From: Candidatus Absconditabacterales bacterium
GTDB lineage: Bacteria; Patescibacteriota; Gracilibacteria; Absconditabacterales; Absconditicoccaceae
Assembly (NCBI GenBank): GCA_041908765.1
Contig: JAYREU010000039.1
Location: 7,618-71,617 of the forward strand
Direction: 5' to 3'
Length of the DNA: 64,000 nucleotides
Below are positions 1-55,261 of this stretch, one piece after another (positions within the stretch are counted from its first letter, which is position 1; every line of letters starts with the position of its first letter). The notes beneath the pieces are model-generated. The model had not been told where the DNA came from and did not search any database. It worked only from the letters and a program-made list of their open reading frames with translations. The position numbers were made by a program, and so were the translations under genes.

Positions 1-1
1 A

Positions 2-17474: not shown

Positions 17475-17498
17475 GTCCCCCCCAACGCGCGAAGCGAC

Positions 17499-17890: not shown

Positions 17891-19069
17891 ATGCAACTTG
17901 TTTATGCAGATCTTCACTACGCCTACCAGCGTGCACGCAGAGGTAAATCCAAGAAAAAAGAAATCATCGCCCGAGAAGCTGATCTGGAAAAAAATATGCA
18001 ACAATTATACAAAGATATTTGTGCATGAAACTATCAGATAGGAACTACCAAAAGATACATCGTAGCAGATCCCGTCGTCAGAGAGATCGTTGCGTTATCC
18101 TTTCGTGACCGTATCGTGCAACACCTAGTCTCGCATTATCTGATGCCGTTATTTGAATCTCAGTGGATACATGATAGCTATGCGAATAGAGTAGGGAAAG
18201 GGACGTTGTTTGGTATCCGTAGAGTAGACAAATTTATGCGTTCTTGTTCTCGCAACTATACAGTAGATGCACGAGTTTTGAAACTTGATATTCAGTCATG
18301 TTTCATGAGTATTTCGAGGACACTCGTACGACAACTTGTGACGCGCCGTCTCTTTGCTTGTAGAGTAGGCCGATCCAAGGAAATTATCTTATCATTGGTG
18401 CACAAGATATTGTTTCATGACTACGTGACTTGACGAGAGGACCATACTATCGCATCCTTGAGAAAAATCCTCCCGGTACACAAAAGTATGTTAGCCTGTC
18501 CACCAAACACCTGACTCCCTCTGGGTAATCTCACGAGTCATCTGTTTTCCAATATCATCTTGCATGAGCTAGATCTTTTTATCAAACATGAGTTGCACAT
18601 ACACTACTATGGCAGATATGTAGACGATTTCGTCTGTATGCACGCAGATCAAGGCTATTTGAAATCTTGTATTGCAAAGATCGAATATTTTTTGAGCACT
18701 CAGCTTGGACTGCATATCCATCCTCGCAAGATATACTTCCAGCATTTCACCAAATGAGTCCCATTTCTGTGAGTAGTCATTAAGCCCTACTGTAGACTGA
18801 TTGGACGCAAAACGATTCGTGCACTACAAAAGCTTCCTTCACTGATTCCGCCACGTATATCACTAGCGGACGGCGTCCATATTGGGCAATCCATCAATTC
18901 TTACTTCGGACTTGTCCGTCATCACGATAGCTTCTGCCTCAGAAAATCCTTGATTTCTGCACTCCCACCCAATCGGTATAATTACCTCCGTGTCCGTCCT
19001 GGGTATAGTTCTGTGAAGCCGAGGGTGAGGGAGGTGCAAAACACACAAAATCTCTTGCAAAAAAATTAA
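17891..19069 (+). CDS. DGR-type reverse transcriptase
   Basis: 392 codons after joining three fragments through TGA=Gly. Motifs include SFRDRIVQH, IHDSYANRVGKGTLFG (the DGR RT hallmark SYAxRxGKG) and YGRYVDDFV (YVDD at 18617-18628). Confidence 0.9.
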
Positions 19070-23452: not shown

Positions 23453-26050
23453 ATGGGAGTTATGACAAACAAAAGTTTCACCTTTACCAAGGACTACCTC
23501 GATAGCATTGCGCAAGCAGGCTTGTTTACCTATCAAGCAGATCAGCAAGTGATCCAGGCTGATGATGTCGTGTTGTGAGTATATATGTACTCCAAAAACT
23601 ACATTTTCTTCAATTTGTTTTGGTCGTTTTTGGGATGCAAAAACCCTGAATTGCTCCAAAAATATATTAATACTACCTTCAAGACTATCAAGAAAGTGCC
23701 CGTGAGAGCTCGCATGAAATTTCAACTTACTGGCTTATTCAAGGATAAATTCCAATATTATAGAAAACAAGGAGTCAGCAAAGTAAACTTTCTTACCTTA
23801 CTCCTGATTGCGCTAGATGGTATTTCTCCCCAACTCATTCATTTTCTCAAACAAAATGAAGTTGAGGTAGAATACATGAAAGAAAAACTCAGAAAAATTC
23901 TTGAGATGACCTACAAAGCAGATCTCTCTCCGATTGATTTTTTCAAGATGCTCGACAATATGGTCAAGCAGCTCGGTTTGGATGTCAATCAAGTTGATAT
24001 GTTTGTAGATATGAAAAATTTTTCTGCGGACACACTTGCACAAGAGCTCATGATGGCAAACCCAGGAACTATTGATGGAAGCGAGGATGCTACCGTTGAT
24101 ACTATTGCAAACTCAACTGATGAAACCAAAAAATTAACCATAGAGTACTTTGGGACAGATCTCACAGATGAAGCTAAAAAAGGATTCTTGGATCCCGTGA
24201 TTGGGAGACAAATGGAAATTGAACAAATCGTCTATACCCTGTTGCGTAAGACCAAAAATAATCCGCTCTTGATCGGTGAAGCGGGTGTCGGTAAAACAGC
24301 CATAGTAGAGGGTTTGGCGCAAGCAGTGGTTGCAAAACGTGTCCCTGATAGATTACTCAACAAACGTATTTTCATGCTCGATATGGGATCTCTTTTGGCA
24401 GGCACCAAGTACAGAGGTGAATTTGAAGCAAGACTCAAAACTATTTTGGAAGAAGCAGCAGATCCTCTCAACAATATCATTTTGTTTATTGATGAAATCC
24501 ATACCATCATCGGTGCGTGAAATGCTGAAGGAAGTGCGGATGCAGCCAACATGCTCAAACCACTGCTCTCAAGAGGCAAAGTACAATTGATAGGAGCAAC
24601 TACCTTTGATGAATATCAAAAACATATCGAAAAAGATCCAGCACTCAAAAGAAGATTCCAAGAAATATCAGTTTCAGAGCCAAGTAGAGATGATGCGGTG
24701 ACTATCCTCACCGGACTCAAAGAAATGTTCGAAGAATTCCATGGAGTGCGTATCGAGCAAGAAGCAATCGAAAAAGCGGTAGACTACAGTATCAGATATC
24801 AGATGAATAAGCACTTGCCTGATAAGGCAATTGATCTCATCGATGAGGCATGTGCAAGAGTTTCTACCATTGCCAAAAAACTCGAGGCAAATGTGGAGTA
24901 CCAACAAATCGAAGAAGCGATCACGACTACCAAGAAAAAAATTGAACAAGCGATCGACAAACAAGATTATTTCGTAGCAGCAGAGCTCAAAGAAAAAGAA
25001 GAAGAACTCAAAAAGAAACTCAAGTCTTTGAGACAATCACAAGCATTGCCCAAGCATTTGAGACCGGTTGTTACGTTACTTGATATCGGACGTGTCTTGG
25101 CAGACAAAATGTGAATTCCTTTGGATAAGATTACTGACTCAGAGATCAAGAAACTCGCTGCTATGGATGCACATCTCAAGACCTTTATCCATGGACAAGA
25201 TGAGGCAGTAGATGCTGTGGTCAAAGCGATTAGAAGAAATAGAATCTCTCTTGTACAACGCAACAAACCTATTGCTTCTTTCTTGTTTCTCGGGCCATCA
25301 GGTGTGGGTAAGACATACCTTGCGAAACTCTTAGCCAAAGAATATTTCGGAGACGAGAAGGCAATGATTAGAGTTGATATGTCTGAGTTTATGGAAAAAT
25401 ATTCGGTTTCCAAATTGATTGGTTCAGCACCTGGATATGTAGGGTATGAAGAAGGTGGCGTACTCACTGAACAAGTGAGGAGAAAGCCTTATAGCGTAGT
25501 ACTGTTTGATGAAATTGAAAAAGCTTCTCCAGATGTACTCAACGTACTGCTTCAACTTTTGGACGAAGGACATCTCAAAGACAACAAAGGTAGATGGATC
25601 GACTTCAAACATACGATTATTATCCTGACCTCCAATATGTGATCAGATAAATTTGGCAAAAAACTTGCAAGCATCTGATTCGTTGGTGGTGATACTAAGA
25701 CCTATGACAACAAACAATTTGATCTCGTCAAAGAAAGAGTGATTGAAGATGTCAAAGCAAGACTAGCTCCTGAACTCGTCAATAGACTCAATGCCATGCT
25801 TGTCTTCAAACCATTGACCAAAGATGAATTAGGAGAAATTTTCAAAACCAAGCTAGACCTCTTCTATGATCAATGGAAACTCAGACCAGGTATTAGACTT
25901 CCCAAGTTTGACAAGAAACGTATCGCACAAGTGATCGACAAGATCTACGATCCTCAATACGGTGCGCGTCCTGTCGAAAGATATTTACATGACGAGCTCG
26001 AACCAGAATTGATTGAGCAAGTGATGAGTGAAGAGTTGAAGAAAGCATAG
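23453..26050 (+). CDS. clpC: ATP-dependent Clp protease ATP-binding subunit ClpC-like (class I AAA+)
   Basis: Two AAA+ modules (GEAGVGKTA; GPSGVGKT) with a short middle domain. TGA 24518-24520 restores the conserved GAG (IIGAGNAEG). KLASIGFVGG gives an IGF ClpP-binding loop only if TGA is Gly. Confidence 0.9.
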
Positions 26051-31437: not shown

Positions 31438-32580
31438 ATGCAAAAAAGTTTTTTTGTTCTCACGATGTTACTTTTGGGTAGTCGGGGAGTAGCATTTGCT
31501 GATCCACAAACTATTATTGCTGCTCGTGAACAACAGTTGGGAATTGCGAATACAGACATGTATACTTTTATTCAATGAAGAGATATACTAGCAACAATTG
31601 AAGAACAATGCGCTTTTGAGGCCATTGAATTAGCATTGCAGTACGAAGATACCATTCAAGATAAGCTTACTGATTATTATAATGCACGATCATCTGCTGA
31701 CGTTCTCGCTCACTCATGGGATATTTATGAGCACATCAATCGTGTGCAGGATGATATCCGCAACTATTCTCCCAAAAACTACTGTGCATTGAAGCATATT
31801 TTCTATAGAACACAAGATTTTTTGAGAGATAAACATATGGCGGTGTTGGAAGATACAGGTATCATGAAAGATTTCGAAGGATTCAGCGATCTAATTTATG
31901 GCTACCAGACCAAGCTTGAGTACTTAGATGCATTGATAGAACGTAATCAAAAATATCCCGGACTTTTGGGTACCAAATTAGTCTTTACCTATCTCAATGG
32001 TGACTTCAAGCAAGACCTCTCTAATGGGGAGCGCGAACTGTTGGATCGTATACAGGCACTGATGGAAGTGATGGTCGCCGAAGCATTGTATAGTCTCTTG
32101 CAGGAGTGAGTCTTTACACAGGCTGATATTGATATTCTCAAAAACAAAGTAACATTCCAATTTGTAGAAAGTTGTGATGTATTTCATGGCAAATATGAAA
32201 TCAAAGAGACACTTACTTCCCAGTGAGAGCACGTCAAGTATGATACGGAACAACTCTTACTCAAAATCAACTATTGTACCAATTTCTTTGTGTTGAGAGA
32301 TCTAGAACATATCTTCCAAAAGATCATTACGCATGAATTAGCACATCACTTTTATTACTATCATGACATGGATGTGGATGCGTTCCACGATATATGTTGG
32401 GTTGATGAAGATACCAAAAATGGTCAATGTAAATCAAGTGACTATGTATCAGAATATGCACAAACGCTAGCGGTAGAAGACTATGCTGAGCAATTTATGC
32501 ATCGATTCTTGGGCATTATCCCTGTCAAGAATACAATCATCAATCAGAAAACCGCCCACTTTTCACAAATGATAAAATAA
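31438..32580 (+). CDS. secreted protein with HExxH zinc-metallopeptidase motif
   Basis: Signal peptide MQKSFFVLTMLLLGSRGVAFA and ITHELAHHFYYYHD near the C-terminus. Three fragments are joined by TGA=Gly. Confidence 0.55.
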
Positions 32581-32617: not shown

Positions 32618-35600
32618 ATGAAAAACTTTGTACTTACCATCAAGTCTTATTGCTTGCATTACCGCTATATAGTGGTGAGTTTTTTTGTTCTAAGTATACT
32701 TGGCCGAAGTAGTTGACTACCTTATAGAGAGGTAGTGTTTGCACAAGCACCCAATCAATGCATCCAGGATGTTGCCAAGTTTCAAGAGTGTATTGCATCG
32801 GGTATGAGTAAAAGATACTGTACCTATCTCCACACAGACAAATCATGCCTAGCTACACAACCAGAGGCAGCTGCACTTTCTACAGAAGCAAGTCCCTATG
32901 TGGAGCAGTTAGTCGATCAAGGATTTGATCCGTATTGGATTGAAGTGGAACTCAAGGAGAAAGATAAAAGAATTCTCCAAGACTTTGATCACCAAACACA
33001 AGATGTAGCAACCTATGCAGACAAACTAGCGAGAGTTGCGGATGCTGCAGAGACGAGTATTCTATGAGTCACTTTTCGTAATTCTACCTCCAGAGTAAAT
33101 ACTTATTTCGCAGATGCTGCCAAACTCTATCAGCTTGATCACGTCGAAAATATTACCGCCTACTGGAAAAAATATAGCGACAATATAAATGCTAACGTCT
33201 ATCAAATTCGTGTCGATGACCCAGCGGATATCGAGGCTATCAAGCAAGACCTGGAGGCACTGGATGATGTAGCTGAGGTGCGTGTGCTTCCGCAGTATGA
33301 AACCTTTGTCGTTCCCAATGATCCGCATTTTTCTTCGAAGTTACGACATTTGAAATGAGGTGCATGAGTCAATGCAGTCGAGGCATGGGATCAACTCCAA
33401 GGACAGACTATTACCCCGGTGGTATGTTCAGCTTCTGATAGCGAATTTACCAAAGGCCACGAAGATCTAGTAGGGAATATTGATTATGCAGATGCAGGTC
33501 AGGATGGTCCTACGCATGGGACGCATGTAGCTGGTATTATGCTCGGCGTGACCGACAATACCAAAGGTATTTCTGCAGTTTCGTACAACGCATGTAGAGG
33601 TAAATTGTATGTTGGCTTGTGAACATGGCCTTCCAACCTTCAAAAAGCGCATGCGGCATGAGCAAAGGTATTCAATATGTCTCTGGGTATTCCCAACAAA
33701 TGATGTGGCGTCCCTTATGCAACCTACAAGAGCAAATATTTCAGCGCAAACGAACAAGCAATTATCGATGCAGCTACAGCTGCAGGTGTCACGGTGGTAG
33801 CAGCAGCAGGCAATGATGGTTGCAGCTTTTCATCTTATCCAGCGCTTTATGAAAATGTTATTTCTGTAGTTGCTTTGGACCAAGGCGGTAACAAAGCAAG
33901 TTTTTCAAACTATGGACAAGGTACCGACGTAGGTGCACCGGGAGTAAATATATATTCTACGTGGCCAGGAGGATACAAAGATGCAAGTGGTACGTCTATG
34001 GCAACTCCATTGGTTGCTTCGTTAGTTGGTTTGCTCAAAGCACTCAAGCCAACATTAACTACTGCTGAAGTACTCAAGATTTTGCAAGAAACGGCTGGCG
34101 CGCAATTCAAAGTCGATGCATGTAAAGCAGTCGCCAAAGTATTGGGTAAGTGATATCAGTGTACCTGATCAGGAGGTGGAGGTGGTGGAAACACCATTGG
34201 GGGAAGTACTACTGCGTGAAGTACGAGTGCATGAAGTACAAGTGCATGAAGTACGAGCGCATGAAGTACGAGCGCATGAAGTACAAGCGCATGAAGTACA
34301 AGCGCATGAAGTACAAGTGCATGAAGTACAAGTGCATGAAGTACAAGTGCAGGATCAACCAGTGCTGGTAGCAATGGCGGATCAAATGGTGGAGGTATTA
34401 GTTGTTCAAATGGTATTAGAGATACCAATGAAACAGATGTAGACTGTGGAGGAACCTATTGCCCACTTTGTCAGGAGTGACAAAGATGTAATGTTGGCTG
34501 GGATTGTGATACACAGTATTGTGATATTTGACAACAGGGTTGAAATAATGGTGGAAATAATTGAAATACGAATTGAAACACAAATTGAAGCACCAACGGA
34601 GGAGGTAGTTTGCCTCCAAGCAAGGATCTAACCTTTTCGTATGCAAATGGATCTACACAAAAACTGAGCACACTCTTCAACTGACATCCCTATATTTTTG
34701 TAGATTTCTCAGCATCACGATGTGGGTATTGTGTGCAAGGAGCTAAGACGCACAATGCATTGTTCCAATGACGAAATGATAATGGGAGTTGTGCCTTTGC
34801 TGCAATAGTTGCAGACGGAGATCTTTGAGCACGACAGGGAAGTATAGCATGAGCACCATTTGTAAGCGCAAACTCAGTATTTGCAAAATGAGATGGCTTG
34901 GCGAAGGTAATTGCGAAACTCTGAGGTAGTTCTGGCGGTATTCCATATTACGTTATATTTGATCAAAACGGAAATATTATCCAACAGCAACATGGGTATT
35001 CTTCATCGATGCCGCAATTTGATAGCATTTGTGGTCAAAAAAATAACGGAGGTACTAATTGAGGTACCAATGCTTGAAATAATAATAGTGGAAACAATAA
35101 TTGAGGTACCAATTGAACCAATAACGGCTGAAATAGTGCCTGAGGAAATTCTTTGTCTGATGCAGCAAAAAAAATCAAACTTACCTTCAATGGTGGTGTC
35201 ACTAAAACTTTAGACGATGTGCATCAGAATCAATATCTACTTCTTGATATAGGAGATTCAAACTGTGGTCAATGTGTAGTTGGTGCAGAAAAACATAATG
35301 AACTCTTTCAAAAGCGAACTAATGATGGGAATTGTCAGTTGTTAACTGTCACTAAAGATGGCGATCTGCCTGCTTGGGTTGGCAAAATTTGAGCTGCTCC
35401 TTTTGTACAAAAATGGTCTGCTTACGTGACAGATGGTTTATACAAACTTATGTGAGCACTCAATATTCCTTGAACGGTTTTGCCGTATTATGCACTTGTT
35501 GATAGTAAATGACAAATTGTTATCGACCAGCAAGGGTGGTCTGATCTTGAAAAGAATTTTGCATCATACTGTGATGCACAGTGAGGGACTAATGGAGGAA

Positions 35601-38600
35601 ATACAAATGCTTGATCCAATAATGACGGAGCATGTGGCCCAGCAAATGGACAATCATTTCCAGATGCAGCTGCCGTAAATGCAGCAGGGTTATGTGCTAA
35701 GTGATCGGCAGTCCCATCCACAATATCAGGCAAAAGCCCATGGACTCGACAATGTCAGTGATCACAATGATGAACCCAAGTCTCATGTAGTGCACAAGAG
35801 GAGGTTAAGCAATACCCCATAGTTGATTTAGCTAATGTGAAGGTGATGTGAATACAACCTGGAGAAAAACGATTCACAGATCTTTATGAAAATAATTACC
35901 TCTTACTCAATCTTTCAAGTTTTGTATGTGGTGCATGTAAGACTGCTGCGATAGCGAATGACAAAACCTTAGAAGATCGACACAACAACGGCCAGTGTGC
36001 ATATGCAGCATTAATAAGTAGTGACAAACAATCTGGCTTTCCTGGTTGGATTGCAGATCCACAGATTAATAAAGCACCATTTATCAAAAGTAGATCATTC
36101 TACCCATCGAATTACAATATCTATCAAGTGATGGAGAAGCTAGGTCTGCCTGCAAATACCGCTTTCCCGTATTACTTCCTTTTGGATGGTCAAGGCAACG
36201 TGATCATGAGTAAGCAATGAACTGCGTGAGGACTAGATATGTTCAAAGCACTCTGTGCTCCTGCGTGAAATGGAGGTGCTTCCCCTGAATGTGGAGTTGC
36301 GAAGGGTAAGGAATTTGCAACCGCTGCAGATCTAAACAAAGCTGTTGTGGATTTATGTGAAGTAGGAACTCCTGATCCTGCTACTTTTTCAGGACCATGA
36401 GATTGGCGATGGAAATGTAAGGAGTGATCAGCTTCGGTTGATTGTGTTGCCAAACAAAAAGCAAACTGACCATCTTGTCCTACCTATGGAAAGGCATGTA
36501 TGATTTCAGCTACTGATTGGTGAGTACATGATGAAAATTGTACTTGTACCTGTGATGGTGACTATCCACAATTTGATTACAATGATGACTGAGTTTTGGA
36601 TCTCACAGATAAAGCTTATATTCAAGAGCATATTTTATGAAAGAAAGTACTTCCAGCTGGAAAAAATGGCGATATAAATAATAATGGTTTCGTGACAGCT
36701 GCTGATTCAGCAGCCTATTCAAAATTACTTCATTGTATTTGAGGAGACCAATCTCAGGGTACCTATGGTGTAGTTAAATGACGATCAGGTAGTCCAGATG
36801 GAAAATCTATCAATTATCCAGGTGGACTTGGATATGATGCTACCATTGATCATAGTTGTACTACAGACGGATGACCGTATTGTGATGGAGTAAAATGAAT
36901 ATGTTATCCAAGTGGTGCCAAATGTTATTATTTCTGTCAAGATAGTAAAGGTCTGGAAAATTATACTACCTCATGTGCACAAGGTACTGCAACAAGTATC
37001 GTCCAACCCAAAACATGTACGTCTTTGATGCAAGATGACAAAGCATGATGCGGTACTCATAAATCATCTGGACTCAAGGGAGAACAAAGTGACCCACAAG
37101 TTTGATCGGCTTTCCTGAATGGATTGTATGCTATGTGACCTATTGCAAGATCACCTATATTCCAAACCGTTTCAATTACTGACTCAGAAATTGAGCGTTT
37201 GGTAGCAGAAGCGTTGCGTGGTAAAATTGCTCCGCTTGAGCCAGAGTTTATACCTGGAGCATATTTTGTCAAAGTTGCTTACTCTGCAGAATCACCTGAT
37301 CGTGTACAAGCGTATTTGCAACCTTTCGATAGCAAGAAATCAAAACCAGAAGTCTATACCAAGCAGCTCACTACAGCACTACAGACTATGGAAGTAGACG
37401 CACGTCAATTTGCACATCGTCAAGTCAAAGATAGTATCACTACGTTGTTGGAAGATACTCCATTAGTCAGTATCACACCATTGTTTGATGCTACCAAAGT
37501 ACAGTCTGATGATGGTGCACAAGATCCTTTGTACAATACCTATGCAATCAACTTTGATACGAGTGATGAACGTTATTCAGTTGCGTCAGTGACAGACTAT
37601 CTCAACACACTCAAAGGAGATGGCGAAGATTCGTATGTTGAGAAACAACCACTCTATAGAGTATTGCAGACCAATGATCCTATGATCAATCAACAATGGT
37701 ATATCTCCAAAACTGAAGCACCAGCCGCACGGACAGCAGGTGCAGTTGGCAAAAAGAGTACTATCCTCGCAGTGGTTGATGATGGATTTGATGTGGATCA
37801 TCCAGAGATCAAAGCCAACTTGGTCAAACAATACAATGCAATGAATGGTTCAAATAATGCTGATAATAATTGTCTCCATGGGACACATACTGCGACGACT
37901 GCAGCGTGAGGCACCAATAATAGTATCGGTATAGCATCAATTTCAAACAATGTAGGACTGATGGTGGTGACTGCATCTGCTAGTTGTAAAACACTACCTG
38001 CTGCCTTTCAAGGTATGCAATATGCAGCACAAAATGGGGCAAATGTAGTTAGTATGTCCTTCGGTGGAGGAGGGTTTAGTCAAACACGACAAAACTTAAT
38101 CTCGAGTAATCCACAAGTTAAATTTGTAGCAGCAGCAGGAAATACACCTTCTACTACCAAAAATTATCCAGCAGCATACCAAGGAGTATTGTCTGTATGT
38201 GCTTCAACAGAAAGTGATACTATGGCATCCTTTTCAACGTATGGAGACTGGGTAAGTGTGTGTGCTCCGGGGACGAATATTATTGCATGAGAACCAAATA
38301 ACTCATATGGTCCATTACAAGGCACTTCAATGGCTACACCCAATGTAGCTGCTTTGGTAGCATTATTATTGTCAAACGGAGACTCAAACCCATTCCAAAC
38401 GATTGTGAATAGTGCCGACAAAGTAGTTAATAAACCACCATATTTACGTATCAATGTCTGTAGAGCAATTGATCAAAGTACAAGCCTCACCTGTACAGCA
38501 ACAGGTAAATGAGGTGGAGGAAGTTGGTGAGGGGGAAGTAATTGAGGCAATAATGGTACTACCAATGGTGGTTGATCTACCAATGGTTGAGGAAGTAATA

Positions 38601-41434
38601 ATGGTGGTGGTAATAACAACTGATGATGAAGTGTTGGCTGAGGAAATAACGGGGGATGATTTGGTTATGGCGTCTGTGCAGTATATAATGGTAATTCAGT
38701 TAATTCCGTCACTACAGAGTTTGTGAGTCTCATTGATGAGATTACTCCAAGTGGTCCCGTTGCACAGTGTAGTTATGTATGTGCTGATTCTGCTTCAATC
38801 ATAGGGCAGATGGTGCCTTGTACTTCCTTAGCAAACACGAGCACAGAATGCAATGGAAATGCTTGTATGGGATTATGTTCTCAGACGGTGATGAAATGTA
38901 CTGATACCGCACAGTGTCCCAAAGGTGAATTCTGTGATACCATAGCATTGGCAAGTAATTTGGTGCAATTGCAATCATGTACGCAAGCATGAGGTGGTGG
39001 AACAACCACCTCTGGCTCACCGACCGCTTGATGAACTACTGGTTGACCTACTACTCCTGTACCTACACCAACGGGTGGATGAACAACCGCTTGATGAACT
39101 ACAACTGGATTGCCTCCGGCTACTACTGCTGGGTGAACTACAGCTTGATCTACGACAGCTTGAGGATGAGCAACTACCTGTTCATACCGATGCGCAAACG
39201 GACAAACATTTGGCACCACCTGTACAACTCCAGAACAAAATAGTGCTACTTGTGGAGGGACTCCTTGTTTTGGAATGTGTTCCAATGGATTACAAAAATG
39301 TCTTTCCAATGCTGATTGCACATCTGTCGGTGGAGTGTGTGAAAAAATTAGTGTGAACCCATCTCAACCCAATACACCACCTACGCCATGTGGAATTGGG
39401 GGAGGTGCAACTGCATGATGAACTACCGCAGGGTGAACAGTTGGATGAAATACTACTGCATGATGAACTACCTCTGCGGGAGGTACTACAGCAGGTGGCA
39501 CCAATGGAGGAAATAGTTGATCTTGAACCACGGGTACACTTTATACGTATCCATTGATTGATGTGAACAAGCAAGCACATACTTCTACTATTACACCAAA
39601 TCAAAAAGTGAAATGGCAATTAGAAATTACCTTTAGATCACCAGCACCACATTATCCAGTAGGTAGCTTGCTCGTGATGGATGCAATGCCTCAGTGATTG
39701 CAGTTTATCAAATGAGAAGAAAAAGTGCAGTTCGCTGGTAAATATGAGTGAGTACAATATGACACGGGCAAACAGTATGTAAATTTTATGCTCAAGATTG
39801 ATGCAACAACCAAACCATATAAAGAAGATGCGCAATTCAAATGGTACAAGGCGACCATCACGTATTATACCTTAGTGGCTGCAAATGCTACACCAGGTAC
39901 CTACGTCAATGGCGCATTGGTAGGCTGTTATGCTATGAGTTCTACGGTAGATAAGTCTAAGTATGCAGGTGTGCCTACTTGTGCATTTGATCTTGAACCA
40001 GGTAAATCAGTAGTTGGTTTGAAAAAAACGTTTCCTCTTACTTTGTGATGAACATGATCTGCTTGCCTTCCAAAAGGTAATGAAGCAGATTACTGTAATG
40101 ACAAGGCAGACAATGACTGTGATGGCCAAGTGGATTGTAAAGACAGCGATTGTAGTGCGAAGGCTCAATGTCAGAAGAATAATGGCGATCATGGTAGTCC
40201 AGATGATTGTGGTGATGGCATTAGAGATGTAGGACAAGGTGAGGAATGTGATGATGGAAACACCAAGGGAGATGATGGATGTTCAGTAGGATGTAAAGTA
40301 GAAAAAGGACGACAATGTACTGTGGATTCACCGAGTATATGCGGAAGTCTGGATTGTTCTACGCATGGCGAGTCATTCGGCAAGGCAAATCTCAATGGAC
40401 AATGCTGTAGTGGATTAGAACCACTTGTGTTCTCTCTCCCTAGCAAACTCATCTGAGTAACTGAGCAAGTTACGTTGTGTTATGATCCTACTATCGATGA
40501 GCCAATGTGCTACCAGAATAAGAAGCCGATGTGATGGTATCTCAAACCCAAGGCAACTGCAGAAACTAAGCTCGTCTATGAAACTGATTGTAGCGTAGCG
40601 TACAATGATTATTATACCAAACTCCAGGATACTCTTGCGCAAAAACAGTCCTACTGTCAATTTACTGATGAAGCATATGAGCGTGTTGATTTCAAAGATA
40701 TTACCAAATCACGCGAAAGAGCAGCAATCTTAGCACTCAGACATTTCTGTGTCGTCAAGGGAAGAGGCAGTTCATTGAGTAATTATGCACCTGAGGGGAG
40801 GGTAAGTAGAGCAGAGTTTATCAAGATGCTTTACAAGACGTATGCTATTCAAAAGGATATTATTATTGCTCCTGAAAGCGATGCATTTGACGGAGACACC
40901 TACTTCAAGGATGTTGCACAAACACATTGGGCTGCACAATATATAGCTTCTGCACATGAGCTTGGATGGTTGACACCACTCGAGAAATGAGCTATTTTGA
41001 GTAGTTTCTTCTCGCCCAATAAATCAATTACCACCAAAGAGATCAAACAGATCTTCGATTGGGTAGAGGATGGACAGGATATACCTGCGGAAACTATAGA
41101 TGAGATCTTGTGAACCAGTACTTATCCCACAAGAGCAGCAGTTGCTAATTTATTGACCAAGAAGTTCTTGCCGAAGTTTGTTGATTATTTCTACCTCCAA
41201 GATGCAAATCAAGGCTACTACAAAGAGTTGTTGAATCAACTCAAAGGCAAGAAGTATACCGAACAATACGATATCATTGTGCAACAGATAGAGAAGCTTG
41301 GTCAAAAAGAACATGGATCTGCATTGCAGGAGTGATTGGATCCCTTTTGGATTATGAGTTTCCTCAAGAAACTTGCCTCATGAAGAGCAGGAGTTAAATG
41401 ACCTGTGCCATCACCAGAAAATCCTAGTTCATAA
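32618..41434 (+). CDS. giant (about 2938 aa) cell-surface multidomain protein: 2 subtilisin S8 domains, 3 thioredoxin-like CxxC domains, dockerin-like and Cys-rich repeats, DUF11-like domain, SLH domains
   Basis: Checked line by line, frame 2 has no TAA or TAG for 8.8 kb, and at least 11 track ORFs share this frame. S8 triads: [15 protein letters not shown] near 33.5-34.0 kb, and DDGFD/HGTHTA/GTSMATP at 37.7-38.35 kb. The CxxC redoxin-like modules are [17 protein letters not shown] and SSFVCGAC. Dockerin-like DYNDDGVLDLTD...[12 protein letters not shown] lies near 36.56-36.72 kb. Also present are [17 protein letters not shown] Cys-rich repeats and SLH-like FKDITKS.../[14 protein letters not shown] at 40.69-41.0 kb. 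Confidence 0.75.
34217..34351 (+). repeat. 15-nt tandem repeat x9 encoding (G-S-T-S-A)n, with the Gly encoded by TGA
   Basis: The unit is tgaagtac(a/g)ag(t/c)gca, nine head-to-tail copies, in frame within the giant ORF. Confidence 0.9.
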
Positions 41435-41590: not shown

Positions 41591-43873
41591 ATGAGACAGC
41601 AATTTTCACTTCGTATATCTTTGCTTATTTGAGCACTCGTATGAAGTTTGAGCTTCTATATGATAGCTATCCAATTTTTGGGTGATTATTATGTAGCAAT
41701 AGTGTATGCACAGAGCTGTTGAATTGTATGAGATACGGATGGGGATGGTATTTGCGATAATGTGGACAATTGTGTAAATGTGGTGAATCCAACGCAGGCT
41801 GACGTAGATAACGACGGAAGAGGTGATCTTTGTGATAATTGTCCTATTGTGTACAACCCTACACAAACAGATAGTGATGGAGACGGAAATGGGGATGCAT
41901 GTGATAGTGTCTTTGGTACAGGCATGTGTACTGGTGCTACTGTGTACAATTTTGATGTCTTTTATTCTTCCACGGGCAACGGAATCACGAGTTGTGATGA
42001 ATGATACGCACTATTCAAACAAGAGTTAGCAAATATGTGTCAGGATATTTCTTCACTCAACCTGTCTGTATCTTGTGTGGTCTCATGAAGCACCGTCACC
42101 TGATCAATTACAACAACTAGTGTTTTGTATAATGCAACTTGATACCTCAATCCCTCACTTTCTGGAGCATTTATGTGTTGTTACTATCCTACGAGTCCAA
42201 TATATCATGGTTTGCCTTGTGCTACAGCACTGACGTGTGGTGGAGGACAATGTCTATCTTCTCCATATCCCTGTGGACAGGGATACACTACGGGAGTGAG
42301 TGTACATATTTCTGGATCAGCGACCTGTTGTGAAAACCCTCCCATCAATGGCGTATGTGGATGAGCGAATAACTGAACATATGATAATTCTACTGGCGTA
42401 AACACGGCAGGTTTATGTGCAACTGGTGTTGCTACTCCTCTCACCGTCACGGGTGCTGGTCCTTGGTCTTGGAGTTGTGCGGGGCTTAGTGGAGGAAGTG
42501 CTGTGTCCTGTATGGCCTATTCCAACTGAAATGGTATGTGTGGTGGTGCAAGCTGAGGAGTATATCAGAATGCAACGTGAGTAAACCTCAGTGGACTGTG
42601 TGCAACTTGAGTAGCAGTACCAGCTGCGGTTACTTGAGCAGGTCCTCGGACTTGGATGTGTCAATCTCAATCGGGTGGTACTACCTCGACCTGTAATGCA
42701 TACAATCGAATAAACGGTATTTGTGGAGCTGCTAGCTGAGGTACGTATACATGAGCTGCGGGAGTCAATTGAGCAGGATTGTGTTTGACTTGAATTGCAG
42801 TACCCGCTGCAGTGACCGGTACAGGCCCATGGTCTTGGACGTGTCAATGAGCAAGTGGTTGAACCTCTATGAACTGTATAGCCAACTACACCACCTGATG
42901 AGGCGGATGAACCAACGGGGGAGGTGGAGGATGAGGAGGAACCAAATGAGGATCACTCAAATGACGATGTGGAGATGGTATTTTGCAGTCTAGACATGGT
43001 GAAGAATGTGATGATGGCAACTACAAAGATGATGATGGGTGTAGTGACACGTGTCGTTGGGAGGATTGGACCGAAGATGATGATGATACCACAGAAGAAA
43101 AATTTGAGAGTGGTATCATCAAAGCTATTAGAAAGCTTAAAGATGCTTGTGTGTATGATGATTTGATTTATGAAAATATTTTCTTTAGAGATGTGCATTG
43201 GAGTCCCTACCGATCAGCTATCAGCGTGCTCAAATCTGCATGTATTATCAATGGCTATGGGTATGGAAAGAGATCTTCTGCAGATTTCCATGCGGATGCA
43301 GCAGTAGGAATTGGTGAGGCGATCAAAGTAGTGAGCAAAATTTATGCCCTCGAAGAAGGGGTGATGTTCGATGAGACAGAGACGCATCTAGGTCGCTTAC
43401 CCTATGCCGATATGAAAGCAAATGCTCGGTATACCACCTATGTGATCTATGCATATACACACGGACTACTTGATGGTATTGGGGTAAGTAAATTATGAAG
43501 TACGTATCTCAAGGCGTTCACTCCTATTTCACCAGATATGTTGCAGCAACTGCTCTACAATGCAGGTATCAAAGAAGACTATCGTGATGAAATGGGGTGG
43601 TGAAAATATGTTTCTAGAGATCGTTTTGCGATGATCGTCACCGATGCGTTTGCGGACAAACTTATTGATTATAAATATATGAATGGTAACAATATCACCA
43701 TATATGATATGATCTTGGTAAATCTCAAATGAAAATCTGAATCCGCACAAAAAGCATATATTAGAAATCTCATTTCTCATCTCCAAGAACAAGATGCTGA
43801 AGAGATGGCGAAGACCTATGGTATTGATCTGGAGTGACTCTTGTTGTTCTTGAGAAAAATAACACCGTACTAG
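41591..43873 (+). CDS. secreted surface protein with thrombospondin type-3 Ca-binding repeats, Cys-rich repeat modules and an SLH-like C-terminal region
   Basis: Frame 2 is open for 760 codons. Contains [39 protein letters not shown], then tandem roughly 50-aa NG.CG...GLC...GPWSW.C..GG..C modules (three clear copies plus a more diverged one), then [17 protein letters not shown] (SLH-like). Confidence 0.7.
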
Positions 43874-49268: not shown

Positions 49269-51707
49269 TTATGAGTTCTCTAGTTCATTTTTATAGATAT
49301 GTTTGTAGATTTCGATGAAAATAAACATGATGACCGCAACAGCTAATGCATCCAACCAATACCAACCAATTGGTACAATCGCCAAGAATTTTCATAATCC
49401 AGGTAGCATATAGGGAGCTGCTAAAAGCGCAAACCCTCATAGTACAGAAATGAGCAACCAAACGTTGTTGAAGGGATTCTCTTTCCATACCGGATCACTG
49501 AGCGTCCTCACGGAGAATACATAAATGAGCGAGGCAATACCGAATGATGCAAAAGCCACTGAACGAGCGAAAATAATATCTTTGGTATCTAGGTATACTC
49601 GTACAAACAACACGAAACTACTAATTGCTCCAATAGTAGATACCAATCAAATTAATTGTTTCATCCAAGGCGCGACGAGATATTCTTTGGGTGATCTGGG
49701 TTTTTTCTGCATGATTCATTTTCTGATAGGGTCTACGGTGAGGGCAATATTGGGGAAACCGTCAGAGACGAGATTAATCCACAAAATTTGTGATGCTGAA
49801 ATAGGCAGCGGATACCCTGTGAGGATTGCAATCAAGATAGCTATAATTTGCACGAATGCATCACAGAGAAGATACAGAATAATCTTTCTGATATTATCAA
49901 ACATTCAACGTCCTTCTTCGACTGCAGATACAATAGTAGAGAAACTCGAGTTCATGAGGATAAGATCAGCGGATTCTTTTGCTACTTCTGTGGCTTCAGC
50001 AACGACGATACCTATATCTGCTTTCTTGAGGGCTGGTGCATCGTTGACACCGTCTCCCATCATAGCGACTATTTCTCCATCATCTTTGAGTGCTTGTACG
50101 ATACGCATTTTTTGGGCTGGTTGCGTCCTTGCGAAGAGTTTGACATGACTATCTTTCTCTAGCCACGCATCAAGCTCAGCATCACTCATGGCAGCCAACA
50201 TATCGCCAGTCATCATCGAGTCATCTCTTACCGCTACACCTAATTTTTCCATGATAGCGCGAGCTGTACCAGGGTAATCTCCCGTGATGACGATGAGTTT
50301 GATACCTGCTTCATGCGTCTTTTGTAGTGCTTCTTTGACATCCTCTCTGACGGGATCTGCCAAACAGATGATGCCTTCCCAAGTCAGTCAGCTAGTTACT
50401 CACTCATGCGATATTTTAGTGATCGCATCTGAGATCTCTTTCTTCGCACAGGCGATGAGTCTATATCCTTGGTCTGTTAACTTATCTATGATAGCCTTGG
50501 TATCTGCTATTTCTTTTGCAGAGAGTGTAGACCATTGTATAAGATAGTCTGGGGCTCATGTTACATAGAGTGTCTTTTGATTATTGGTGGTATACAGACT
50601 CGCTGCATATTTGCGTTCGGAGGCAAAGGGTACTTTATCAAGCAACTGAGCATCATCGGTCACCGGAGATTGTTGCTGTGCTCGCGTGATAATCGCTTTG
50701 GAAACCGCATTATCATCATCGGTAGTATACATAATTTCCTTGGCAATCGATATTTTGTCGCCAATAATATCAACGACTTCCATCACTCCATGCGTGAGAG
50801 TCCCTGTTTTGCCTGAACAAATCACGGTGACTCAACCGAGCGTTTCTGCAGAGACGAGGTTTTTGACGAGACCTTTTCTCTTGAGAATTCTTTGCATACC
50901 AATAGTGAGTACTATCGTCAACGCCACCAATAGCCCTTCGGGAATAGCTCCAACAGCCAATGCTACTGCAGTAGTGAAGATATCCACAGGAGATTGTCCA
51001 CGAATGAGTCCTATCACGAAAACGACAAGTACAATTCCTACTACTACCCGTGTGAGTTGCTTGCTGAAATATTGTAATTGCTTTTGGAGTGGCGTGACGG
51101 TTTCACCTCATTGGAGACTACTGGCAATTTTACCGAGCTCTGTGGTGGCTCATGTTTTTTGAATTTCTACATACGCTGATCCAGAAAGGACGACGGTGCC
51201 CATAAATGCCCCATCGGCTATATTTTTTTCCACGGGTAGTGATTCTCAGGTGAGCATGGCTTCGGAGACAGTGAGTTTGGTATTTTCTCTCACGATACCA
51301 TCTGCGGGAATTTTGCAACCACTTTTACACAAGATAATATCTCCTGGTACGAGTTCTTTGGTAGGAAGGTCTATGAGTTTTCCATCTCTCAGGGTGGGGA
51401 TAGTGGGTTGGAGGAGGTCTTTGAGTGCTTGTAAGGCTTTGCCCGCTTTACTTTCCTGATACCAGCCAAGTACGGTATTGAGCACTACAGAAAATCAAAT
51501 AATAACGGTGTCTTCATAATCACCCAAAAAGAACGTAACTCCTGCCGCTACGAGGAGAATATAGACGAGCGGACTTTTGAGTTGCTCTAAGACTATCTCG
51601 AGCTGGGTAGGCGGTCTTTTTTCAGGGAGCATATTGAGTCCGAAGCGCTGTTGGAGGTCATGGACTTGAGATGTGGTTAGCCCGCTTAGTGTAGTGGTTG
51701 TTCCCAT
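49269..51707 (-). CDS. P-type cation-transporting ATPase (type II-like) with an aberrant phosphorylation motif
   Basis: TGES (Gly from TGA), ICSGKTGTLT in place of ICSDKTGTLT, VITGD and GDGVNDAPAL. Eight track fragments share one frame. TAA stop at 49269. Confidence 0.85.
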
Positions 51708-51850: not shown

Positions 51851-54800
51851 ATGAGTGATGCACGTTTCTCACCTAATTTGCTTTCCGCTACCCAGGATAA
51901 TGCATATTACGCATTGACAATGTTTCCCTACCCATCTGGAATAGGCCTGCATTGCGGGCATGCAAGTATTTTTACGATAAATGACGTCGTGGCGAGATTT
52001 CAACGTATGCAAGGTAAAGTTGTCTTCAATCCCTTTGGTTTCGATGCATTTGGTTTGCCGACCGAGAACTATGCGATGGAACGTGGAATTCCTGCCTACG
52101 AAGTGACCCAAGAGAACAAAGCATTCTTTATCAAACAAGTGCAGGCGTTAGAGATTAGCTTTGACTATGAAAAGGTGATTGATACCTCAGATCCTGTCTA
52201 CTACAAACGAACGCAATGGATATTCGCTGAGCTTTTCAAGGCAGGACTTGTCTATCGCGACACGCTCCGAGTCAATCGATGTCCGAGCTGTCAAACGGTA
52301 TTAGCAAATGACCAAGTAGTAGAAGGCAAATGTGAGCGTTGCAAGACGCCCATTATTCAAAAAAAGCACCCGCAATGGTTTATCAAAATAACCGCTTATG
52401 CGGATAAGTTACTGGCAGATCTCGATCTTATCGATCGACCAGAAGAAACCAAAACAGCGCAGAGAAATTGGATTGGGCGTTCTGAGGGCGCAGAGATAGA
52501 TTTTGTGATTGAAGGACACGATGACAACAAAATTACCGTCTTCACCACACGTCCAGACACGATCTATGGTGTGACCGCTCTGGTAGTAGCACCAGAAGTA
52601 ACTTCACTGGATGAGTACGTCCCAGCAGATCATCTCGATGCGCTCCATGCGTATAGAAAAACCACGCTTGCCAAAACTGCTGTCCAAAGACAGCAGGGTC
52701 TCGAAGAAAAGTCGGGAGTCTTTTCGGGCATCTATGCATTACATCCACTTACAGGTGAACGTATCCCTGTTTGGTTTGCAGACTATGTCTTGCCCGATTA
52801 TGCAACGGGTGCAGTGATGTTTGTGCCAGCTCATGATGAGAGGGATCGGGAGTTTGCAAAGAAATACGGGATGCAGGTAAGGCAGGTTATTGAACAAAAA
52901 GACACAGATACACCCCCTTTCTTTTCGGGAGAGGGCAAGAAGATGGAAACTGAAAACTCCCCTCTCCTTTCGGAGAAGGAACAGGTCACCACTAAAGAAT
53001 TCCCTCTCCTTTTGGGAGAGGGTCAGGGTGAGGGTGTTCTGCATAAAAACAATATCTACCATACCGTTGAAGAAAAAGAAAAACTTATTACCTACGCAAA
53101 GGAACTCAGAAAAGCCTGAACAAATGGTGAAAAATTTGTATGGGAGTTTTTGAGAAATAGATGATATAGTAATCTCAAACGAAGAAGACAGCATCCATTA
53201 GGTAATTATATAGCTGATTTTTATTGTCACGAATACAAGCTTGTACTTGAATTAGATGGCCCACAACATGAATGACAAACATGATATGATGCCAAAAGAG
53301 ATGCATATATGGAAGATCTATGACTTACTATTGTTAGAATTAGCACGGATAAATTGTATGAAGAGCCTGGTTTGTTGTTTCAGTATATCGAGGAACATTT
53401 ACCCTCACCCCATCCCTCTCCCAAAGGAGAGGGGGATCGTGCATATACCTGATCATGAAAACTTATTAACTCATGACCCTTTGACGGACTCGATAATCAA
53501 GAAGCCAAGAAGAAAATCATCGCACACCTCGAGACGCTAGGTGTCGGTCGTGCTAAAGTGAGTTATAAATTGCGTGATTGGTCGGTAAGTCGCCAAAGAT
53601 ATTGGGGGAGTCCTATACCTGTCTATTATGATGTACCTGATGACCAGGTCGCATTTTATGCCTACCAAGATGCAGCGAAAAAACACAAAGATGGTGAGCC
53701 TACGCTTACCAGGCAAGTCATACAGGTGATTGTCAAAGATAAAAATTCAGATCAGTATGCTTGGATTGAGTGGAAAAGCGATGGTGATACCAGCGGATTT
53801 TTCGGGGGTATTGAAGAAGGGGAAGACATGCATGAAGCTATCAAACGTGAATTGCGTGAAGAAGGAGGAATAATCGATGTAGCTATCAAACAAGAGATTA
53901 TGGAGTATCACTGTAAGTTCTTTCATCCTACCAAACAAAGAAATCAGTATAGCATTTGCCATGCTTGGTATGTAGAAGTAGATCGCACTAGTTGTCAGGA
54001 GATAAGTAATGAAGAAAAAATGAAACATGAGATAGTCCGATTGACTGCTGATGAATTCTTACGCATTTCCAAGAATGATACCAGCATCTATGTCGTCAAT
54101 CAGCTCTTGGGTAACTCACAAAAGGCATGGCCACAAGCCAATAGATACAACGACCACAATCCTGTTCCTGAAGATAAAAAAATCCCTCACCTGATCCCTG
54201 ATGCAGAACTTCCCGTAGTACTTCCATTGGATCTCGAAAATTATAAACCAAGTGGTAAGTCACCTCTTGAAGATCATCCGACCTTTCCGGAGTATCACAA
54301 GGACGGTAAGGTTTACCGTCGTGAATGTGACACCTTGGACACCTTCATGTGCAGTTCGTTTTATTTCTTGAGATTCTTGGATCCGACCAATCCTGATCAA
54401 TTAGTCCGCAAGGAGGTCGCTGATGCACGGTTGCCTATTGAGTTGTATACAGGTGGCAAGGAACATACGGTGGGGCATTTGCTGTATGCGCGCTTTATTC
54501 ACAAATTTTTGTATGATCAATGATATCTCTCCTGTCCTGAACCTTTCCAAAAATTGGTACATCAGGGAATGGTACTGTGATTTGATGGGCGCAAAATGGG
54601 GAAGAGATATAACAATGGTATCGATCCTATTGAAATGGTGGAACTCCACGGTGCAGACGCACTCAGGACCTATCTGATGTTTATGGGACCGGTGGATCAG
54701 GATAAGACGCGAAATGATAATGCACTCCATGGTGTCAAAAAGTTCCTCGAAAGAATAGAAAGAATTTTGCAACAACCTCGATTTGGGCAAGGGAAACAGG

Positions 54801-55261
54801 CGGTTACCTCGGCAGTGCATCAAACTATCCAAGGTGTTACTGATGATTTTCATGCGCTCAAGCTCAATACTGTCGTGAGTAAATTGATGATATTGACCAA
54901 TACAATCTATGATCAACAGGCAGCAACTAGCGATGATATGTGTATCATGACTCGTTTACTCGCACCGCTTGCGCCTAGTTTGGCAGACCGTTTGTGGGAA
55001 GCACTGGGACAAACAAATGATGTGCAATATGCGCCTCGACCTCTTGTAGACTCAACCAAAATTATCATCGAACAGATTAACCTCCCTGTACAAATAAATG
55101 GTAAAATGAGAGGAACCTTGCCTGTAGCTCCTGGACTGTGAGAGCAGGAGATATTGGGATTACTTCACACACATGAACATTTCGCATGATATCTAGTGGA
55201 TAAAACGATACAAAAGTCTATCTTTGTACCAGATAAGATAATTAATATTATCGTTAACTAA
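51851..55261 (+). CDS. leuS: leucine--tRNA ligase with two large in-frame insertions (1136 codons)
   Basis: MFPYPSG..LHCGH (HIGH class), [21 protein letters not shown] (KMSKS) and a C-terminal [11 protein letters not shown]. All fragments (51758-53119, 53558-54523, 54596-55141) are in frame 2, and no TAA or TAG occurs in between. Confidence 0.9.
53000..53436 (+). mobile_element. DUF559 (Vsr-like endonuclease) cassette bounded by 36-nt inverted repeats, inserted in frame in leuS
   Basis: Left repeat: ttccctctccttttgggagagggtcagggtgagggtg (53000-53036). Right repeat: accctcaccccatccctctcccaaaggagaggggga (53401-53436). The interior encodes [58 protein letters not shown]... Confidence 0.65.
53633..54181 (+). 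other. Nudix hydrolase domain inserted within LeuS
   Basis: A perfect Nudix box [23 protein letters not shown] lies at 53804-53872, between the conserved LeuS blocks SPIPVYY and [11 protein letters not shown]. Confidence 0.75.

Follow-up and report, generated by a model that had tools for sequence, protein, structure and literature searches.

The subject of this work is a gene for a giant protein of 2,938 residues (hereafter, the giant), located in a 64,000-nucleotide stretch of contig JAYREU010000039.1 from Candidatus Absconditabacterales bacterium (assembly GCA_041908765.1); this whole stretch is called the window, and positions refer to it. We found that the giant is one real, intact and continuous gene, under purifying selection in all of its domains, in which three thioredoxin-like (Trx) modules, each with a CxxC motif, lie between two subtilase domains of family S8 (S8-1 and S8-2). 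Its domain architecture is new and defines a small new family; the parts themselves are familiar, and giant surface proteins had been recognised in this lineage before. The alignments indicate that this organism reads UGA as glycine and CGA and CGG as tryptophan, and residue numbers throughout follow the translation with this corrected code. The original prediction, drawn from the letters of the DNA, had proposed the order signal, S8 protease, linker and Cys knot, three CxxC modules, Cys modules, dockerin, second S8 protease, Cys repeats and S-layer homology (SLH) repeats, and this layout was reproduced almost item by item with Pfam and related models.

Genetic code and continuity of the gene

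A single long frame free of TAA and TAG had been reported, and we recovered it on the forward strand at 32618-41434, where it starts with an ATG at 32618 (the stop-to-stop span opens at 32576) and runs for 2,938 codons plus a stop. Under genetic code table 11, 108 of its 2,939 codons are stops, namely 107 TGA and the one terminal TAA or TAG. None of the other five frames of the region is open; TAA and TAG make up 2.96% of their codons, a background rate that puts the probability of meeting neither in 2,938 codons by chance at ~1e-38. TGA serves as sense everywhere in the window: the longest open reading frame (ORF) measures 456 amino acids (aa) when TGA is a stop (table 11) and 2,953 when TAA and TAG are the only stops. 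As scans for tRNA genes and Rfam families gave no match in the window, the code was deduced from alignments. TGA stands on the glycines of GAGGAEG, TGIPL and SNVG in the ClpC alignment and on those of LTGES and KGGPD in the alignment of a P-type ATPase. Moreover, we compared the giant with its counterpart on contig CAZWFZ010000025.1 (L005, described below): the TGA codons of the window face TGA 28 times, GGN 15 times and Asn, Asp or Cys codons five times, these five lying within low-complexity linkers, and in the reverse direction the TGA codons of L005 face TGA 28 times and GGN 17 times, with TGG never opposite TGA. A reading of TGA as Trp (table 4) was ruled out, because in none of these alignments (ClpC, P-type ATPase, L005) is TGA aligned to Trp or swapped with TGG.

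The codons CGA and CGG were followed in the same manner. Over the orthologs, CGA was exchanged with TGG 14 times, CGG with TGG six times and CGA with CGG three times; CGT, CGC and AGA interchange freely, against a total of one swap of CGA or CGG with CGT, CGC, AGA or AGG. Particularly, the universally conserved Trp of the VNWCP motif of LeuRS is a CGA codon, and invariant Arg positions are CGT, CGC or AGA. The combination of UGA as glycine with CGA and CGG as tryptophan was described for Absconditabacteria by Shulgina and Eddy (PMC8629427), and the reading of CGA and CGG as Trp therefore points to an organism of the Absconditabacteria (SR1) type. The attribution of the DNA to a recoded Candidate Phyla Radiation (CPR) member in the original prediction was thus correct in kind. 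The table-25 translation that it recommended is right in reading TGA as Gly and wrong at 15 residues of the giant encoded by CGA or CGG (positions 30, 243, 701, 719, 739, 900, 1044, 1085, 1121, 1264, 1389, 1705, 1824, 2191 and 2565), which are predicted to be Trp and not Arg. Under the corrected code, Trx module 1 reads WCGYC and passes the Pfam Redoxin cut-off of 26.6 bits, scoring 29.4 where it had scored 26.6 before, and in S8-2 the 'AW' motif of subtilases has its conserved Trp back. CGA accounts for 14 of the 2,938 codons of the giant (~48 per 10,000), next to 24 TGG. This frequency and the GC content of the window (41.8%) both exceed the ranges published for reassigned clades, which are below 37 CGA per 10,000 and a GC of 0.26-0.38 (PMC8629427).

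Relatives of the giant were found on other contigs. L005, a contig of a metagenome-assembled genome (MAG) in GTDB, holds a continuous frame of 2,189 codons, its 5' end lost at the contig end, that is 85% identical to residues 1381-2934 of the giant; ~33% of codons differ synonymously and ~10% carry amino-acid changes. The label of that MAG, 'Candidatus Peribacteria' (Peregrinibacteriota), is doubtful given 67 in-frame TGA codons read as Gly and exchanges between CGA/CGG and TGG. A second relative, on an 86.7-kb JGI contig (3300056827, Ga0558118_01967; L006), is a 2,246-codon frame collinear with the giant from residue 727 to the end, with 69% aa identity, and the gene order around it is that of the window: ClpC, a hypothetical gene, Icd, GlyRS, a 380-aa gene, the giant, a 766-aa gene and a 5'-3' exonuclease. 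Between the giant and L006 synonymous sites are saturated, and the non-synonymous differences per site (pN) amount to 0.03-0.18 in each domain. A more distant relative, P0001 (2,396 aa, from the Logan assemblies; contig L001), is ~30% identical and likewise has two subtilases in a single ORF.

Contiguity across the repeats had been left as a question to be settled. Contigs from three other samples (DRR784962, ERZ27258492 and SRR26835459) reproduce window positions 34304-37392 with 99.97-100% identity and zero gaps, and the frame is unbroken across the repeats. The contigs from all three samples break off at the (GSTSA)n array (34203-34351) or close to it, and the copy number of the array is uncertain; as its 15-nt unit is a multiple of three, the reading frame is unaffected by that number. 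In L006, three single-base insertions fall inside ~350 nt of the S8-1 region (L006:8280-8800). We take them for errors of assembly or for decay that set in very recently in L006; a split gene structure is unlikely, since the three +1 indels together restore the frame amid conserved coding sequence and the protein across them stays 85-96% identical. Further frame changes were seen near the first two Trx modules of L006, and the adjoining housekeeping genes are intact. That the giant is an artefact, be it a chimeric or misassembled ORF, two genes joined through a collapsed repeat or a decaying pseudogene, is hardly credible: it could draw on the ends of the short-read contigs at the (GSTSA)n repeat and on the insertions of L006, and it is opposed by an open frame that crosses all repeats, each with a unit that is a multiple of three, by the restoration of the frame in L006, by the same two-S8 layout in a single ORF from an unrelated sample (P0001), by the continuous frame that L005 and L006 keep from the Trx modules through the C-terminus, and by purifying selection on every domain.

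Protein search of the queried collection returned no full-length copy of the window's protein. In the public gene calls the gene is fragmented at TGA codons into pieces of ~80-110 aa, such as window 35153-35389 (P0122) and L006:10001-10342 (P0121), and in the public set P0001 has TGA translated as Trp. Double recoding thus conceals genes of this kind; with table 25, too, 15 residues come out wrong, one of them the Trp of a WCxxC site.

Domain architecture and rarity of the fusion

Both proteases of the original prediction were confirmed. S8-1 matched Pfam PF00082 with E=9e-36 (124.1 bits; gathering score 21.8) and thermitase 1THM with E=1e-30, with D274, H300, N399 and S460 all aligned, although its catalytic Asp sits in SASDSEF (SASDSEY in L006) and not in the canonical D-[TS]-G. 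S8-2 matched the same family with E=7e-39 (134.3 bits) and 1THM with E=1.4e-40, with D1721 (VVDDG), H1754 (HGTH), N1842 (AAAGN) and S1904 (GTSMATP) aligned; it is the most conserved domain in the comparison with L006 (93% aa identity, pN=0.03). With the catalytic D/H/S and the oxyanion Asn present, both domains are apparently competent subtilases. Each is preceded by a region that had been labelled propeptide-like. Region 1 ends just before VPNDPHF, which falls on residue 3 of mature thermitase in the alignment, and region 2 ends at TNDPMINQQ, aligned to the mature thermitase start. Homology links the two regions with each other and with both copies in P0001, and region 2 keeps 80% aa identity with L006 (pN=0.086). 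Neither region gave a match to Inhibitor_I9 or to any other Pfam family at E<=1, and a six-copy profile of these pre-S8 regions matched nothing in the PDB at E<=10. The label was therefore not borne out by any family or solved structure, and position alone fits it.

For the three modules between the proteases, described before as TlpA/redoxin-like, the CGYC, CGQC and CGAC motifs and a cis-Pro in register were recovered, and modules 2 and 3 taken singly fall below Pfam thresholds. Module 1 passes the Redoxin cut-off with the score given above. Module 2 reaches 19.7 bits with Thioredoxin_8 (threshold 27); it is 82% identical to its L005 ortholog and has pN=0.087 against L006. Module 3 is silent in Pfam on its own; on a hidden Markov model (HMM) of four other modules it scores 87 bits (E=5e-29), and 1000 shuffles gave 8 bits at most. 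We aligned six modules from three proteins, to which two L006 modules were added later. Invariant in the six are the CxxC, one more Cys in the strand that follows, a PF motif, the cis-Pro and a C-terminal Cys; of these, the CxxC, the Cys of the following strand and the Pro recur in modules 2 and 3 of L006, and a Trp after the first helix is conserved among the modules under the corrected code. The best real match of the six-module profile in the PDB was the TlpA-like 2LJA (E=4e-6, positions 14-134), with the CxxC on WCGPC and [IL]P[YR] on IPRF, which places the cis-Pro strand in register. Weaker matches were ResA, thioredoxins and protein disulfide isomerase (PDI). The entry 8h2i 'P22', nominally the top match, was rejected as a sum of sub-threshold repeat matches. 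These alignments suggest that the three modules adopt a TlpA/ResA-like thioredoxin fold. The paralogs within the giant share 24-35% mutual identity, which indicates that the triplication is old and no assembly artefact.

Beyond these domains the giant is rich in cysteine, with 101 Cys distributed over at least 10 Cys-rich modules. The predicted (GSTSA)n linker was found in its expected place by TRF, as was the Cys knot behind it, whose motif is conserved behind both S8 units of P0001. The knot and the 4-Cys, 9-Cys and 10-Cys modules gave no family match in the domain scans; the two 10-Cys modules are related to each other by self-BLAST (34% identity, E=1e-5). The two Cys-rich modules of roughly 50 aa that had been noticed correspond to the 4-Cys modules, a ~55-aa pattern (CG..G..AGLC..G.GPW.W.C.G..GG..C) that matches nothing in Pfam or NCBIfam, varies in copy number among relatives and occurs three times in the downstream 766-aa gene (42356-43000). 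They are the fastest-evolving part of the giant (59-64% aa identity with L006, module 2 being lowest at 59%). The dockerin-like double EF-hand proved to be a type I dockerin above threshold (Dockerin_1, PF00404) with two Ca-loop motifs, the first of which is DYNDDGVLDLTD; it is 82% conserved in L006 and missing from L005. The DUF11-like domain fared worse: PF01345 scored 18.4 bits against a cut-off of 24.6, in a region that is 80% conserved in L006. As for the Myxococcus-type Cys-rich repeats, TIGR02232 passed its cut-off (35.5 vs 20.8 bits) and a single copy was confirmed, at residues 2529-2567, while NF033662 (19.4 bits) stayed under its cut-off of 41.

The predicted signal anchor and SLH-like repeats were also found. 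On the Kyte-Doolittle scale (>1.8), residues 17-32 form the sole signal-type segment of the giant, and PF00395 exceeded its gathering score over two stretches, with a third repeat not recognisable. The SLH and C-terminal part is 93-98% identical in L005. The single hydrophobic segment at the N-terminus, together with the SLH and dockerin matches above threshold, points to an exported, extracellular protein that is probably tethered to the wall.

Table 1. Layout of the giant and its two flanking genes (window positions; residues in the corrected code)
Feature	Position	Residues	Strand	Remarks
Whole gene	32618..41434		+	2,938 codons + stop; 107 TGA (Gly), 15 CGA/CGG (predicted Trp)
Signal peptide or signal anchor	32618..32713	1-32	+	hydrophobic core 17-32
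Pre-S8 region 1 (propeptide position)	32903..33313	96-232	+	ends before VPNDPHF
Subtilase 1 (S8A, thermitase-like)	33314..34105	233-496	+	D274, H300, N399, S460
(GSTSA)n linker	34203..34351		+	TRF: 15-nt unit x 9.9 copies
Cys 'knot'	34403..34522	596-635	+	7 Cys; motif [ED][TS]D[VI]DCGG..C..C
Trx-like module 1, WCGYC	34607..35041	664-808	+	Redoxin 29.4 vs 26.6 bits
Trx-like module 2, CGQC	35153..35581	846-988	+	Thioredoxin_8 19.7 bits, below threshold (27)
4-Cys module 1	35630..35791	1005-1058	+	CG..G..AGLC..GPW.W.C..GG..C
Trx-like module 3, CGAC	35813..36265	1066-1216	+	sister-module HMM 87 bits
4-Cys module 2	36290..36463	1225-1282	+	sequence pattern
Type I dockerin	36572..36724	1319-1369	+	Dockerin_1 29.8 vs 22.9 bits
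Cys-rich region, 9 Cys	36728..37117	1371-1500	+	matches no known family
Pre-S8 region 2 (internal propeptide position)	37181..37669	1522-1684	+	ends at TNDPMINQQ
Subtilase 2 (S8A, thermitase-like)	37670..38446	1685-1943	+	D1721, H1754, N1842, S1904
Two related 10-Cys modules	38684..39403	2023-2135 and 2187-2262	+	Thr/Gly linkers between
Beta-rich region	39554..40063	2313-2482	+	sub-threshold DUF11
Acidic Cys-rich repeats	40094..40318	2493-2567	+	one TIGR02232 repeat, 2529-2567
SLH-like repeats and conserved C-terminal tail	40691..41431	SLH 2692-~2800; tail 2801-2938	+	SLH 28.3 vs 20.8 bits
Upstream secreted 380-aa protein	31438..32580		+	HELAHH motif; ends 37 nt before giant start
Downstream paralogous surface protein, 766 aa	41573..43873		+	TSP_3, three 4-Cys modules, DUF4215/Myxococcus-type repeat, SLH-like C-terminus (21.7 bits)

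The placement of thioredoxin-fold modules between two subtilases had been called unusual, and the searches agreed. When 1.84 billion cluster representatives were searched exhaustively with HMMER (E<=1e-3), using a profile from TGA-free stretches of the window, 34 matches to the Trx module were returned, of which the only strong one was the window's own table-11 fragment P0122. Most of the remaining matches are proteins of 140-440 aa, TlpA-like in the cases scanned; P0151 is a six-fold tandem redoxin without a protease, and P0130 and P0132 were rejected as spurious, being Ig/CARDB repeat proteins. No protease was present among the 34. Likewise, none of the 120 matches listed for the full-length giant combined S8 with a redoxin or thioredoxin Pfam domain in one protein, a word-index search with the Trx profile gave one fragment, and a metagenome scan with the pre-S8/S8-2 alignment gave three unrelated S8 loci, each without a Trx module. 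A fusion of subtilase and extracellular thioredoxin was absent among the listed large S8 proteins of a 5.8-billion-protein collection and from the literature searched. With the Trx-module HMM we identified the protease-thioredoxin fusion in four loci only, carrying one to four modules: three in the window, four in L006, at least three in the 5'-truncated L005 and one in P0001 (L001), where the unit of pre-S8 region, S8, knot and Trx recurs at 30% identity. Compared with the window, L006 contains one more Trx module, of CAGC type, as well as one more 4-Cys module, its third; in L005, module 3 and the dockerin are missing, and two copies of another Cys-rich module take their place. Such differences in module number between close relatives amount to a natural experiment on which parts are dispensable. 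As public sets fragment or mistranslate these genes, the true distribution of the family is probably under-estimated.

The nearest known systems share parts of this layout. Both protease domains resemble S8A enzymes of the thermitase type, with D/H/S and the oxyanion Asn in place, a type that includes large SLH-anchored surface subtilases from Gram-positive bacteria; Peptidase_S8 and SLH occur together in several large proteins among the database matches, such as P0035, P0062, P0080 and P0090. The giant differs from these in having two subtilase units in one chain, Trx modules between them, the D-S-E of S8-1 and, before each unit, a family-specific region of ~150 aa without similarity to I9. 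The Trx modules are closest to TlpA, ResA and CcmG (Redoxin/AhpC-TSA clan; 2LJA, 4NMU), to judge from the near-full-length profile match, the CxxC and cis-Pro in register and a predicted extracytoplasmic location. Whereas the known members are small, membrane-tethered, single-domain proteins fed by CcdA or DsbD, here one to four copies are part of a putatively wall-anchored protease, and they differ further by a Pro-less dipeptide, two extra invariant Cys and two invariant Trp, as would befit a separate subfamily. The giants of other Absconditabacteria and Gracilibacteria (Vampirococcus lugosii, BD1-5) are alike in lineage, code, size, predicted surface location and adhesion or repeat modules (PMC8080830, PMC6851277); the interaction domains described in them are of the WD40, PKD, DUF11, integrin and alpha-2-macroglobulin types, and a subtilase-thioredoxin architecture is unmentioned in those two papers.

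Candidate roles of the giant

Our preferred interpretation, held tentatively, is that the giant may be a wall-anchored feeding or attack enzyme that would break disulfides and then cleave proteins. It would be exported by Sec through its N-terminal signal or anchor and kept on the wall by its C-terminal SLH repeats, with long Gly/Ser/Thr/Asn linkers spacing the two thermitase-like subtilases and the cassette of three TlpA/ResA-like modules ([W]CxxC plus cis-Pro). These oxidoreductase modules would open or reshuffle disulfides of Cys-rich targets, either on the surface of a host or prey or free in the environment, and the adjacent subtilases would cleave the opened targets into peptides for a cell dependent on external amino acids. 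The dockerin may provide contacts for binding or assembly, as may the 4-Cys modules and the acidic Cys repeats. The redox activity and its direction, the cooperation of Trx modules and proteases and the target are all predictions from sequence. Cooperation is suggested by three observations. In the family members the Trx modules always come after a unit of pre-S8 region, S8 and knot. S8 endoproteases synergise with disulfide reductases on Cys-rich keratin (PMC4756042), in keratinolytic systems where disulfide breaking (by a reductase or sulfite) and endoproteolysis are likewise combined on Cys-rich substrates; there the activities reside in separate proteins or small molecules, and here both would be in one chain. 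Lastly, the lineage depends on external amino acids (PMC8080830, PMC6851277), and cultured Absconditabacteria are predators with giant surface proteins (PMC8080830). Few other CPR bacteria have predatory representatives in culture. Disulfide chemistry coupled to proteolysis on the surface is a testable candidate for how prey or environmental proteins might be opened and digested.

Several observations weigh against this interpretation. The D-S-E at the catalytic Asp makes the activity of S8-1 uncertain, and an AlphaFold2 model of module 3 (two-sequence alignment) had a predicted local distance difference test score (pLDDT) of 39, too low to be of use, so that support for the fold comes from sequence profiles only. 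Reducing Trx and TlpA enzymes usually hold a Pro in the CxxC dipeptide (CGPC, CxPC). The dipeptides across this family are GY, GQ, GA, AG and SA (CGYC, CGQC, CGAC, CAGC and CSAC), none with Pro, and since they resemble the CGHC of PDI, an isomerase or oxidase fits as well as a reductase. Among the ~35 genes of the window we found neither a CcdA or DsbD electron donor nor a DsbB or VKOR oxidant partner, and Trx modules within a wall-anchored giant would be placed far from the membrane. With 101 Cys in the giant itself, the modules may serve its own folding. Their number, one to four among relatives, and the loss of module 3 and the dockerin in L005 imply that no fixed stoichiometry is required. 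Finally, no gene of the window encodes a cohesin domain.

The main rival, which we judge somewhat unlikely, takes up the cysteines of the giant: the Trx modules would be a built-in or shared folding catalyst, similar to PDI or DsbA/DsbC, forming and proof-reading, outside a cell that lacks a periplasm, its ~45 own disulfides and those of other Cys-rich surface proteins such as the 766-aa paralog, and the proteases would have an independent nutritional or processing role. Its strength lies in the 101 Cys spread over so many modules, in the Pro-less, CGHC-like dipeptides, in the weak matches of the profile to PDI chains (E ~0.01), in a Cys-rich neighbouring surface protein that has no Trx module of its own, and in the fact that no dedicated Dsb-type gene was seen within the window. 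Like PDI, the giant has several CxxC thioredoxin-type modules per polypeptide. It differs from PDI in lacking the b/b' substrate-binding architecture, in modules nearer to TlpA than to the PDI a-domains, and in being a bacterial, presumably extracellular protein that also contains proteases and a surface anchor. Against a folding role, the profile matches best to the TlpA/ResA type and not to DsbA or PDI, and the position of the modules behind pre-S8 region, S8 and knot in every family member suggests a functional link to the protease. Moreover, we know of no arrangement in which a folding catalyst is fused, in one to four variable copies, to one substrate.

A further possibility, unlikely in our estimation and compatible with either functional reading, is that the giant is a self-cleaving polyprotein. 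The pre-S8 regions would then be propeptides, and autoprocessing at two junctions would yield a released or docked N-terminal enzyme (S8-1, Trx cassette and dockerin) and a wall-anchored C-terminal enzyme (S8-2, Cys repeats and SLH). Both regions end exactly at the mature thermitase start (PNDP on residue 3), they are homologous to each other and to the P0001 copies, region 2 is well conserved, and the dockerin falls within the part that would be released. Against such processing stand their lack of likeness to Inhibitor_I9 or to solved propeptides, a length about twice that of the usual I9 propeptide and the window's lack of a cohesin. The dockerin recalls cellulosome-like assemblies through its type I family and its two Ca-binding loops; it differs from them in that it is internal and not terminal and is missing in L005, and in that the window has no cohesin or scaffoldin and the giant no glycoside hydrolases.

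Feeding or attack and self-cleavage can be joined in a bolder form of the preferred interpretation, which taken as a whole we regard as improbable. In it, a predatory SR1 bacterium would use the giant outside the cell as a self-contained 'reduce-and-cleave' weapon, whose Trx cassette, kept reduced by sulfidic, anoxic surroundings with no membrane donor, would unlock disulfide proteins of the prey for the two subtilases. Self-cleavage of the precursor at the internal pre-S8 junction would give a wall-anchored and a dockerin-held part, and the variable number of Trx and Cys modules would be an adaptation to different prey surfaces.

That the giant is mainly an adhesin seems very improbable. Its Cys-rich, dockerin and beta-rich modules would bind host or prey, the CxxC motifs would trap targets by mixed disulfides, and S8-1 would be a non-catalytic binding domain, as its atypical D-S-E might suggest. 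Giant adhesion-type proteins are typical of the lineage (PMC8080830), and module content that differs between close relatives is what host-interaction proteins show. Nevertheless, both S8 domains have all catalytic residues, S8-2 is the most strongly conserved part, and both Cys of each CxxC are invariant, which suits turnover chemistry over trapping by a single Cys.

Neighbouring genes and other features of the window

The 766-aa gene adjoins the giant in L005 and L006 as well. The 380-aa gene is conserved in L006, and the L005 contig ends before that position; its protein had no significant family match, and we treat a metalloprotease role as a lead only. The other neighbours are ordinary genes, among them ClpC, Icd, GlyRS, a 5'-3' exonuclease, TPM, LemA, RuvC, LeuRS, IF-2, Pth and GDH, and promoter and terminator scans remained at background level. 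ClpC lies near the giant in the window (23453-26050), in L006 and also on the contig of P0001 (L001:10257-12914), which hints at old synteny.

A candidate diversity-generating retroelement occupies window 12859-19069, with an RVT_1 reverse transcriptase (57.8 bits) in an ORF at 17657-19069. Its repeat of ~100 nt occurs three times with 80-84% identity, as variable-repeat (VR) candidates at 16519-16615 and 17329-17425 and a template-repeat (TR) candidate at ~17725-17825. The differences fall mostly at adenines of the copy adjacent to the reverse transcriptase, and a 1,524-aa gene containing AAA_5 carries both variable copies at its 3' end. We rejected the giant as a target of this element, as every copy of the repeat is found within that gene or beside it. 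The P-type (Ca-ATPase-like) ATPase used above (49269-51707, reverse strand) has GKTGT in place of the DKTGT phosphorylation motif, with a GGC codon at the changed position; elsewhere it aligns well to the Ca-ATPase of Listeria (E=7e-121). Either an inactive paralog or a sequence error could account for the change. Finally, LeuRS (51851-55261, forward strand) has two domains inserted in frame: aa 412-515 match a DUF559/Vsr-like endonuclease domain with 95.7 bits, and aa 652-713 match a NUDIX domain with 28.8 bits. A repeat of ~35 nt (~91-94% identity), which encodes a peptide like P-L-G-E-G-x-G-E-G, was found at 53001-53035, 53401-53433 (inverted), 15650-15680 and 17499-17533. Two of its copies, in inverted orientation, flank the DUF559 insert, and the others are inside the 1,524-aa gene and beside the reverse transcriptase; a small mobile element with in-frame insertion may account for this repeat.

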